A stretch of DNA of 64,000 nucleotides from the sequence record PQ666539. One strand, written 5' to 3'. Positions 55,607 to 58,600 of the stretch are shown piece by piece. Source of the DNA: Shigella phage sb1. The notes below the pieces were generated by a model. That model saw only the letters and a list, made by a program, of their open reading frames with translations. It ran no database searches and was not told where the DNA came from. Both the position numbers and the translations under genes were made by a program. Positions within the stretch are counted from its first letter, which is position 1; the number at the start of each line of letters is the position of its first letter.

Positions 55607-58600
55607 CTGGCCGAGATTAAAAGAAAGTTCAGAGCAGAAGATGGTCTGGACGCAGGTGGCGATAAAATAATCAACGTAGCTTTAGCTGATCGTACCGTAG
55701 GAACTGACGGTGTTAACGTTGATTACTTAATTCAAGAAAACACAGTTCAACAATACGATCCAACTCGTGGATATTTAAAAGATTTTGTAATCATTTATAA
55801 TAATCGTTTTTGGGCTGCTATAAATGATATTCCAAAACCAGCAGGAGCTTTTAATAGCGTACGTTGGAGAGCATTACGTACTGATGATAACTGGATTACC
55901 GTCTCATCTGTGTCATATCAATTAAAATCTGGTGAAGCTATTTCGGTTAACACTGCAGCTGGTAATGATATTACATTTACTTTGCCATCTACCCCAATTG
56001 ATGGTGATACTATCGTTCTCCAAGACATTGGAGTAAAACCTGGAGTTAACCAAGTTTTAATTACAGCTCCAGTGCAAAGCATTGTTAATTTTAGAGGTCA
56101 GCAAGTACGTTCAGTTTTAATGACTCATCCAAAGTCACAGATGATATTCATTTTTAATAATCGTTTGTGGCAAATGTATGTTGCTGATTATAGCAGAGAA
56201 GCTGCAATTGTTACTCCATCGACTGCATATCAAGCACAATCTAATGATTTTATCGTGCGTAGATTTACTTCCGCAGCTACAATTAATATTAAACTTCCGA
56301 GATTTGCTAATCATGGAGATATTATTAATTTTGTTGATTTAGATAAATTAAATCCGCTTTATCATACAATTGTCACGACATATGATGAAACAACTTCAGT
56401 ACAAGAAGTTGTAACTCATTCTATTGAAGGTCGTACATCGATTGATGGTTTCTTGATGTATGATGATAGTGAAAAATTATGGAGATTGTTTGACGGGGAT
56501 AGTAAAGCACGTTTACGCATTATAACGACTAATTCAAACATTCGTCCAAATGAAGAAGTTATGGTATTTGGTGCGAATAATGGAACAACTCAAACAATTG
56601 AGATTCAGCTTCCAACTAATATTTCTGTTGGTGATACTGTTAAAATTTCCATGAATTACATGAGAAAAGGACAAACAGTTAAAATCAAAGCTGCCGGGGA
56701 AGATAAAATTGCTTCTTAAGTTCAATTGTTGCAATTCCCAAAGCGCTCAGAATATCCGCCTGAAGCTGAATGGGTGACTGTCCAATAATTAGTTTTTAAC
56801 GGTGAAACTAATTATGTTCCAGTTTTACAGCTTGCTTATATAGAAGATTCTGACGGAAAATACTGGGTTGTACAGCAAAACGTTCCAACTGTTGAAAGAG
56901 TCGATTATTTAAATAATTATAATAGAGCAAGATTAGGCGTGATTGCTTTAGCTACACAAGCTCAAGCTAACGTCGATTTAGAAAATTCTCCACAAAAAGA
57001 ATTAGCAATTACTCCAGAAACATTAGCTAACCGTACTGCTACAGAAACTCGTAGAGGTATCGCAAGAATAGCAACTACTGCTCAAGTAAACCAGAACACT
57101 ACATTCTCTTTTGCTGATGACCTTATCGTCACTCCTAAAAAGCTGAATGAAAGAACTGCTACAGAAACTCGCAGAGGTGTTGCTGAAATTGCTACGCAGC
57201 AGGAAACTAATACAGGTACTGATGATACTACAATCATCACTCCTAAAAAGCTTCAAGCTCGACAAGGTTCTGAAACATTATCGGTTATTGTAACTTTTGT
57301 ATCTACCGCAGGAGCTACTCCAGCCTCTAGTCGTGAATTAAATGGTACAAATGTTTATAATAAAAATACTAATAATTTAGTTGTTTCGCCTAAAGCATTG
57401 GATCAGTATAAAGCTACTCCAACGCAACAAGGTGCAGTAATTTTAGCAGTTGAAAGTGAAGTAATTGCTGGACAAAGTCAAGAAGGATGGGCAAATGCGG
57501 TTGTAACGCCAGAAACGTTACATAAAAAGACATCAACTGATGCAAGAATTGGTTTAATTGAAATTGCTACGCAAAGCGAAGTTAATACAGGAACTGATTA
57601 TACTCGTGCAGTCACTCCTAAAACTTTAAATGACCGTAGAGCAACTTAAAGTTTAAGTGGTATAGCTGAAATTGCTACACAAGTTGAATTCGACGCATGC
57701 GTCGAAGATACTCGTATCTCTACACCATTAAAAATTAAAACTAGATTTAATAGTACTGATCGTACTTCTGTTGTTGCTCTATCTGGATTAGTTGAATCAG
57801 GAACTCTCTGGGACCATTATACCCTTAATATTCTTGAAGCAAATGAGACACAACGTGGTACACTTCGTGTAGCTACACAAGTTGAAGCTGCTGCAGGAAC
57901 ATTATATAATGTTTTAATAACTCCTAAAAAGCTTTTAGGTACTAAATCTACCGAATCACAAGAAGGAGGTATTAAAGTTGCAACTCAATCTGAAACCGTG
58001 ACTGGAATGTCAGCAAATACTGCTGTATCTCCAAAAAATTTAAAATGGATTGTGCAGAGTGAACCTACTTGGGCAGCAACTCCATCCATAAGAGGATTTG
58101 TTAAAACTTCATCCGGTTCAATTACATTCGTCGGTAATGATACTGCTGGTTCTACACAGGACTTAGAACTATACGAGAAAAATAGTTATGCAGTATCACC
58201 ATATGAATTAAACCGTGTATTAGCAAATTATTTGCCATTAAAAGCAAAAGCTGCTGACGCAAATTTATTAGATGGTCTAGATTCATCTCAGTTCATTCGT
58301 AGGGATATTGCCCAGACAGTTAATGGTTCACTAACCTTAACCAACCAAACGAACCTGAGTGCCCCTCTTGTATCATCTAGTACTGCTACGTTTGGTGGAT
58401 CAGTTTCAGCAAATAGTACACTAACTATTTCTAATACTGGAACGGCAACTCAATTAATTTTTGAGAAAGGACCTCAATCTGGAACAAACCCAACGCAGAC
58501 AATGACTGTAAAAGTGTGGGGAAATCAATTTAGCGGGGAGTCAGATACAACACGTTCTACTGTATTTGAAGTTAGTGATGAAACTTCTAGTCATTTTTAT

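Follow-up and report, generated by a model that had tools for sequence, protein, structure and literature searches.

Gene 34 of Shigella phage sb1, which encodes the proximal subunit of the long tail fibre, contains an in-frame TAA at positions 57647-57649 of the 64,000-nucleotide stretch analysed here (sequence record PQ666539; hereafter, the window). This TAA is very probably part of a consensus-level layer of substitution errors, rather than an ochre mutation, a recoded stop or a sign of pseudogene decay. A G>T change in the GAA codon of Glu681 made the stop, which belongs to a layer of about 240 C:G>A:T changes at about 1.4% of G:C pairs over the whole 64-kilobase (kb) window, laid on an otherwise normal, selection-shaped Tequatrovirus genome. 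Because the changes of this layer were never exposed to selection, they are most likely consensus sequencing or assembly errors, or template damage that became fixed during library preparation.

The four stops and lost start of gene 34

The window spans gp14 to gp37 of a T4-like (Tequatrovirus) genome and is colinear with Escherichia phage EPIMAM01. Gene 34 lies where a T4-type gp34 gene is found, between rnh and 35-36-37 (upstream genes 59, 33, dsbA and rnh; downstream genes 35, 36 and 37). Its 3870 nucleotides are colinear, without insertions or deletions (indels), with the annotated gene 34 of T4 (NC_000866) and of nine other Tequatroviruses, and its product is 91.2% identical in amino acids to T4 gp34 and 94.7% identical to the EPIMAM01 protein. 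The 4.7 kb around the stop reach up to 95.1% nucleotide identity to the Tequatrovirus gene 34 region. The highest identity in the databases is approximately 95% for gene 34, 97.9% for the 1 kb around the stop and 96.5-96.8% for segments of 25 kb, and the IMG/VR contigs do not come closer.

Homology to gp34 extends over the full length and includes the C-terminal trimerisation domains (Pfam PF21446, 1.3e-32; PF21560, 1.3e-11). A Pfam scan of the N-terminal gp34 fragment gave no match, nor did an NCBIfam scan of three gp34 fragments. Because Gp34_trimer and Gp34_2nd are both encoded beyond codon 681, termination there would drop the C-terminal domains. The gene shares with T4 gp34 (NP_049860.1; PDB 9x3r, 5nxh, 5nxf and 4uxe) the locus rnh-34-35-36-37, the length of 1289 codons and both Pfam domains, but its frame starts with CTG and is broken by TAA at codons 371, 394, 681 and 1184, and as written the whole protein is not encodable.

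55607..59476, plus strand: gene 34, long tail fibre proximal subunit; 1289 codons and a TAA terminator, with the start lost and four in-frame TAAs
55607..55609, plus strand: CTG at the start of gene 34, ATG in every relative (A>C)
56717..56719, plus strand: first in-frame TAA, codon 371, from TCA (Ser) by C>A
56786..56788, plus strand: second in-frame TAA, codon 394, from GAA (Glu) by G>T
57647..57649, plus strand: third in-frame TAA, codon 681, from GAA (Glu) by G>T at 57647
59156..59158, plus strand: fourth in-frame TAA, codon 1184, from GAA (Glu) by G>T

The original prediction had placed the third of four gene 34 stops at 57647-57649, and the sequence bears this out: the bases read TAA, the gene 34 frame gives ...TLNDRRAT*SLSGIAEIATQVEFDA..., and the four in-frame stops are all TAA. 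It had also proposed a change from GAA, to be checked by alignment to T4 gp34. In that alignment T4 codon 681 is GAA (Glu681), and the codon is GAA, with flanks otherwise identical, in all relatives examined. Compared at gene 34 were T4, EPIMAM01, UGKSEcP1, UGKSEcP2, vB_SsoM_113, SG1, ZCEC15, C2-3, Shinka, Sf21, Ec_YwIITB1, sb2, sb3 and sb4; codon 681 is GAA (Glu) in the gene 34 of 13 of 13 relatives (14 names being listed) and in four IMG/VR contigs. The same relatives have an ATG start, TCA and GAA at codons 371 and 394, and GAA or GAG at codon 1184. No in-frame stop occurs in the gene 34 of 10 of the 13, and the exceptions named are sb2 and sb3.

Codon 681 falls within one copy of a repeated motif, AT-E-T/S-xx-G-I/V-A-x-I-A-T, that has Glu at this place in the other copies (ATETRRGIARIAT, ATETRRGVAEIAT, GSETLSVIVTFVS, the stop-bearing AT*SLSGIAEIAT and ANETQRGTLRVAT). 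The GAA of the relatives and the Glu of the other repeat copies together establish that the change was from GAA to TAA. In an exact search with the TAA-bearing 29-mer, IMG/VR held only the GAA version, and JGI metagenomes and GTDB genomes gave no match.

Among the 69 private changes in gene 34, 25 are G>T or C>A, and these account for nearly all of its radical replacements (Gly>Val, four times; Ser>Tyr, twice; and Pro>His). The gene has 143 sites at which a C:G>A:T change gives a stop. Four stops were observed where 1.9-2.6 are expected (P = 0.13-0.26), and gene 34 is therefore not singled out within the window. The T4 record annotates a replication origin, oriG (ori34), within gene 34; its position there, 152947, corresponds to approximately 57745 in the window, about 100 nucleotides downstream of codon 681, with no sign of a relation to the substitution.

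C:G>A:T changes across the window

Mapping every annotated gene onto the window (80 genes) revealed 32 in-frame stops in 22 of them and three lost ATG starts (gp15, gp34 and one small open reading frame (ORF)), with no frameshift or indel in any of the 80. The essential genes with stops include gp17, gp18, gp22, gp23 and gp32, and with several essential genes interrupted the sequence as written is therefore not that of a viable phage. By function, the 22 genes comprise structural and packaging genes (gp16, gp17, gp18, gp22, gp23, gp51, gp27, gp29 and gp48), tail-fibre genes (gp34, gp35 and gp36), genes for replication, recombination and other roles (uvsW.1, uvsY, alt, alc, rnlA, nrdA and gp32) and three small ORFs. 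All but one of the 32 stops trace to a coding-strand G>T or C>A (GAA>TAA, GGA>TGA, GAG>TAG, TCA>TAA and TAC>TAA), a class that makes up 29% of the possible nonsense-making single substitutions (binomial P = 4e-16 for 31 of 32). These 31 comprise 24 TAA, 4 TGA and 3 TAG, against 71%, 18% and 11% expected on codon usage; TAA predominates because C:G>A:T changes acting on the present codon usage predict mostly TAA. The stops and lost starts outside gene 34 are listed below, with minus-strand stops given by the first codon base.

1858, plus strand: stop in gp16
2975 and 3461, plus strand: two stops in gp17
4125, plus strand: stop in gp18, codon 128
10042 and 10312, plus strand: two stops in gp22
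11617-11619, plus strand: stop in gp23, codon 274, Leu TTA>TAA (T>A)
19075, plus strand: stop in uvsW.1
21609, plus strand: stop in gp51
22634 and 23075, plus strand: two stops in gp27
23897, plus strand: stop in gp29
25684, plus strand: stop in gp48
60109, plus strand: stop in gp35
61230, plus strand: stop in gp36
20143, minus strand: stop in uvsY
29451, minus strand: stop in alt
27588, 39689 and 43019, minus strand: stops in three small ORFs
43384 and 43198, minus strand: two stops in alc
44393, 44240 and 43667, minus strand: three stops in rnlA
48402 and 48399, minus strand: two stops in nrdA, in adjacent codons 124 and 125
53212, minus strand: stop in gp32
575: start of gp15 lost, ATG to ATT
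ORF ending at 39752: start of a small ORF lost, ATG to ATT

The same class of change dominates well beyond the stops. We polarised private substitutions across the window against EPIMAM01, Ec_YwIITB1 and sb2, which gave the following numbers of private C>A/G>T changes.

Window: 273 (140 C>A and 133 G>T)
EPIMAM01: 31
Ec_YwIITB1: 32
sb2: 66

The 273 private changes of the window affect 1.36% of its G:C sites, and their excess is about 240; all other substitution classes are comparable to those of the three control genomes. The two groups of change also differ in their coding outcomes.

C:G>A:T private coding changes, observed: 24 synonymous, 169 missense and 28 nonsense
C:G>A:T private coding changes, expected without selection: 15.7, 178.3 and 27.0
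All other private coding changes, observed: 356 synonymous, 122 missense and 2 nonsense
All other private coding changes, expected if unselected: 153, 399 and 21

The C:G>A:T changes match the split expected under zero selection, whereas the other classes are strongly purified, and there are therefore two layers of change, one selected and one not. The window is a normal T4-like genome shaped by purifying selection on which a layer never exposed to selection is superimposed. The layer extends over the entire window, and its rate is the same in the gene set used (1.36%) and beyond it (1.40%).

The density of the layer is uneven, at 1.75% of G:C sites in 36001-64000 compared with 1.08% in 1-36000 (Fisher P = 7e-5). 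Natural divergence does not explain this gap, and differences in coverage or between contigs of the source assembly may lie behind it. We found no preference for particular flanking bases (tests P = 0.07-0.96) and no enrichment in the CCG context (1.30%, against 1.36% overall). Neighbouring pairs within 20 nucleotides number 34, against 24.2 +/- 4.5 expected (z approximately 2.2, a weak signal), and 23 of the 34 (68%) are of the same type; such clustering is seen in nrdA, where the affected codons 124 and 125 are neighbours, and in gene 34, where a 16-nucleotide stretch has three C>A changes. Two gene-destroying changes fall outside the class, the TTA>TAA in gp23 (T>A) and the ATG>CTG at the start of gene 34 (A>C). 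There is a minor second error component, which resembles the A/T transversions that are abundant in the record of phage sb4.

Sibling records and other features of the window

Phages sb2, sb3 and sb4 (PQ666540-PQ666542) were described together with a fourth Shigella phage, ADG1 (PQ666539), in one study; all four came from lake water in Kolkata (PMC11993411). Their DNA was extracted with cetyltrimethylammonium bromide (CTAB), made into an enzymatic Twist library with amplification by the polymerase chain reaction (PCR), sequenced on a NovaSeq 6000, assembled with SKESA and annotated with Prokka (PMC11993411). The same paper reports 285 (ADG1) and 291 coding sequences for two of the phages, compared with 254 and 255 for the other two, and a G+C content that rises from ADG1 (35.16) through TMC4 (35.35) and AKR2 (35.49) to CDR3 (35.52). 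On shared alignment columns, the G+C content rises from the window (35.94) through sb4 (36.08) and sb2 (36.16) to sb3 (36.21).

The sibling records carry a related defect. The sb4 record (PQ666542.1) has many split genes. Where it aligns to window positions 1-49000 it contains about 42 in-frame stops, 25 of them due to G>T/C>A and 15 to A>T/T>A; its private C>A/G>T changes number 106, compared with 13-27 in the other reference records. In sb2 (PQ666540.1) we found four in-frame stops made by G>T/C>A, with C>A-type stops in gp18 and gene 34, and in sb3 (PQ666541.1), over 6379-10248 of the locus, one in-frame stop, at gene 34 codon 151. Both sb4 and sb2 are T4-like, 94-96.5% identical to the window, and have essential genes fragmented by substitution-only stops that are mostly G>T/C>A. 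They differ from the window in that sb4 has, in addition, numerous A>T/T>A and A>C/T>G changes, whereas errors in sb2 are few; neither record shares the TAA at codon 681 of gene 34.

Some of the stops are identical between records. The gp18 codon 128 stop (4125) is common to the window and sb2, and the stops at small-ORF codon 29 (43019) and nrdA codon 125 (48399) are common to the window and sb4, despite 2-4% nearby divergence of sb2 and sb4 from the window. Several radical G>T/C>A missense changes are also common to the window and sb2. By a rough estimate, about 0.3 chance coincidences are expected with sb4 and 0.04 with sb2; as the shared stops exceed this, the window and sibling assemblies are not independent, and the identical stops imply shared reads, a shared pipeline or site-specific errors. 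An exact look-up of the rnh, gp59 and gp35-fragment proteins of the window returned no record, but the control proteins from sb2 and sb4 likewise returned none, so this look-up is uninformative.

Beyond gene 34, the window contains a 218-amino-acid ORF between gp18 and gp19 (5724-6380, plus strand) that is absent in EPIMAM01 and annotated as a hypothetical protein in Ec_YwIITB1, sb2, sb3 and sb4. It might be a free-standing homing endonuclease, judging by its Cys-rich and His-containing motifs; a Pfam scan over 5730-6380 gave no match. The distal fibre region gp36/gp37 (60663-64000) differs greatly from EPIMAM01 and to a moderate degree from Ec_YwIITB1 and sb2, which is the usual T-even host-range mosaicism. 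Two further segments, 37011-37289 (the spacer upstream of rIII) and 30315-31234 (part of the alt duplication), have an absent or rearranged counterpart in EPIMAM01, which is typical T-even indel mosaicism.

Origin of the changes

Oxidative damage in library preparation, which generates 8-oxoguanine (8-oxoG), is known to cause C>A/G>T artefacts (Costello et al. 2013; PMC3616734). They have a low allelic fraction and a CCG>CAG context (PMC3616734). A read-orientation bias, with G>T in read 1 and C>A in read 2, is characteristic of such artefacts. The changes in the window resemble them in substitution class, in an apparently non-biological origin and in their blindness to coding: the excess is confined to C>A/G>T, with the minor exceptions of the gp23 T>A and gene 34 start A>C changes, and the observed coding split of 24/169/28 follows the expected 15.7/178.3/27.0. 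They differ in that they stand in the consensus, at approximately 1.4% of G:C pairs, and have no context preference.

Two causes could produce such a layer. Template damage of the 8-oxoguanine type might have been fixed by PCR at low effective depth; alternatively, on a two-colour Illumina instrument (NovaSeq), false signal in the green channel might have turned G into T and C into A. In two-colour NovaSeq chemistry, G is dark, T is green, C is red and A is both red and green, and a spurious green signal would therefore give G>T and C>A, the class seen here.

The changes are specific in class, bear no trace of selection, spread over the whole window and have a related defect in the sibling records; from these observations we infer that the layer is technical in origin. 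Several points weigh against this reading, which is based on the consensus sequence. The CCG>CAG (GGC) context of shearing-induced 8-oxoG artefacts is absent, as is any flanking-base preference. A consensus error rate of 0.4-0.5% is very high for a deep Illumina assembly. Finally, the changes at gp23 codon 274 (T>A) and at the start of gene 34 (A>C) fall outside C:G>A:T, so the error process is not wholly of one class.

The sequenced molecules may instead truly carry G>T, through an oxidised or damaged, non-viable preparation or through guanine-directed hypermutation, in which case the consensus would describe real but dead genomes. We regard this as unlikely. The class matches the miscoding product of 8-oxoG (PMC3616734), and both the variation in rate along the window (1.08% compared with 1.75%) and the weak short-range clustering, with its same-strand concordance, would suit changes present in the DNA. 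However, fixed damage and miscalls look alike in a consensus, and changes at about 1.4% of G:C pairs, with nonsense in gp17, gp18, gp22, gp23 and gp32, are far above a viable load. The changes also have no sequence context, and the differing transversion mixes of the sibling records fit a technical origin better. In its most biological form, a massive, guanine-directed and context-free hypermutation of T4-type genomes, perhaps through an anti-phage process, oxidative or enzymatic, that acts on DNA as it replicates, with dead genomes dominating the sequenced pool, this reading is highly improbable.

It is also very unlikely that a natural T4-like genome had the substitutions planted on it, in silico or by synthesis. 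In favour of this, the layer consists of substitutions alone, which are context-free, blind to coding and nearly equal between strands (140 C>A and 133 G>T), and neither the TAA-bearing 29-mer nor the window proteins have an exact match in the collections searched. Yet the rate varies along the window, three of the stops recur identically in the public sb2 and sb4 records, several radical G>T/C>A missense changes are common to the window and sb2, and the G+C ranking of the window, sb4, sb2 and sb3 parallels the published ranking of ADG1, TMC4, AKR2 and CDR3.

A layer of consensus errors also accounts for the flagged TAA better than do three biological readings of it. Gene 34 nonsense mutants are classical conditional lethals in T4, in which a premature gene 34 stop leads to particles without the proximal half-fibre. 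The TAA at codon 681 is a clean one-base change from GAA, and its truncated product would be without Gp34_trimer and Gp34_2nd, as for a genuine ochre mutation in a viable phage that is suppressor-dependent or fibre-less. But the classical T4 gene 34 amber mutants, like the window in having a premature gene 34 stop, have a single TAG in an otherwise wild-type genome and are grown on suppressor hosts, whereas here the codon is TAA and is one of 32 stops. A conditional-lethal gene 34 mutant would be an isolated lesion in an intact genome; the window has stops in 22 genes and three lost starts. With four stops and a lost start in gene 34, 28 stops in 21 other genes, 169 unselected missense changes and no suppressor transfer RNA (tRNA) found in the window, a genuine ochre mutation is scarcely credible. 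No tRNA gene of any kind was found in the 64-kb window, and the tRNA cluster of T4-type phages lies elsewhere in the genome, outside this segment.

Stop-codon reassignment or programmed readthrough, with TAA decoded as an amino acid, could be read from the 25 of 32 in-frame stops that are TAA, most of which replace Glu, but it has practically no probability: TGA (4) and TAG (3) are also in frame, the residues replaced include Glu, Gly, Ser, Tyr and Leu, TAA still terminates most genes (gene 34 included) as in relatives, the relatives at 95-98% identity use the standard code, and the bias to TAA is what G>T/C>A changes on this codon usage predict. That gene 34 is a pseudogene decaying under relaxed selection, as its multiple stops and lost start codon might indicate, is equally hard to credit, given that one substitution class alone is unselected while the other private changes are purified (356 synonymous and 122 missense), that none of the 80 genes has an indel and that the stop density of gene 34 is as the window-wide rate predicts.

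As biology, the flagged TAA has no bearing on tail-fibre function, ochre suppression or recoding, and its use is as a flag of data quality. Counts of coding sequences and proteins from such records are inflated by fragmentation, and in-frame stops, lost starts and odd missense changes in this window, and apparently also in sibling records such as PQ666542.1, should provisionally be treated as G>T/C>A error.

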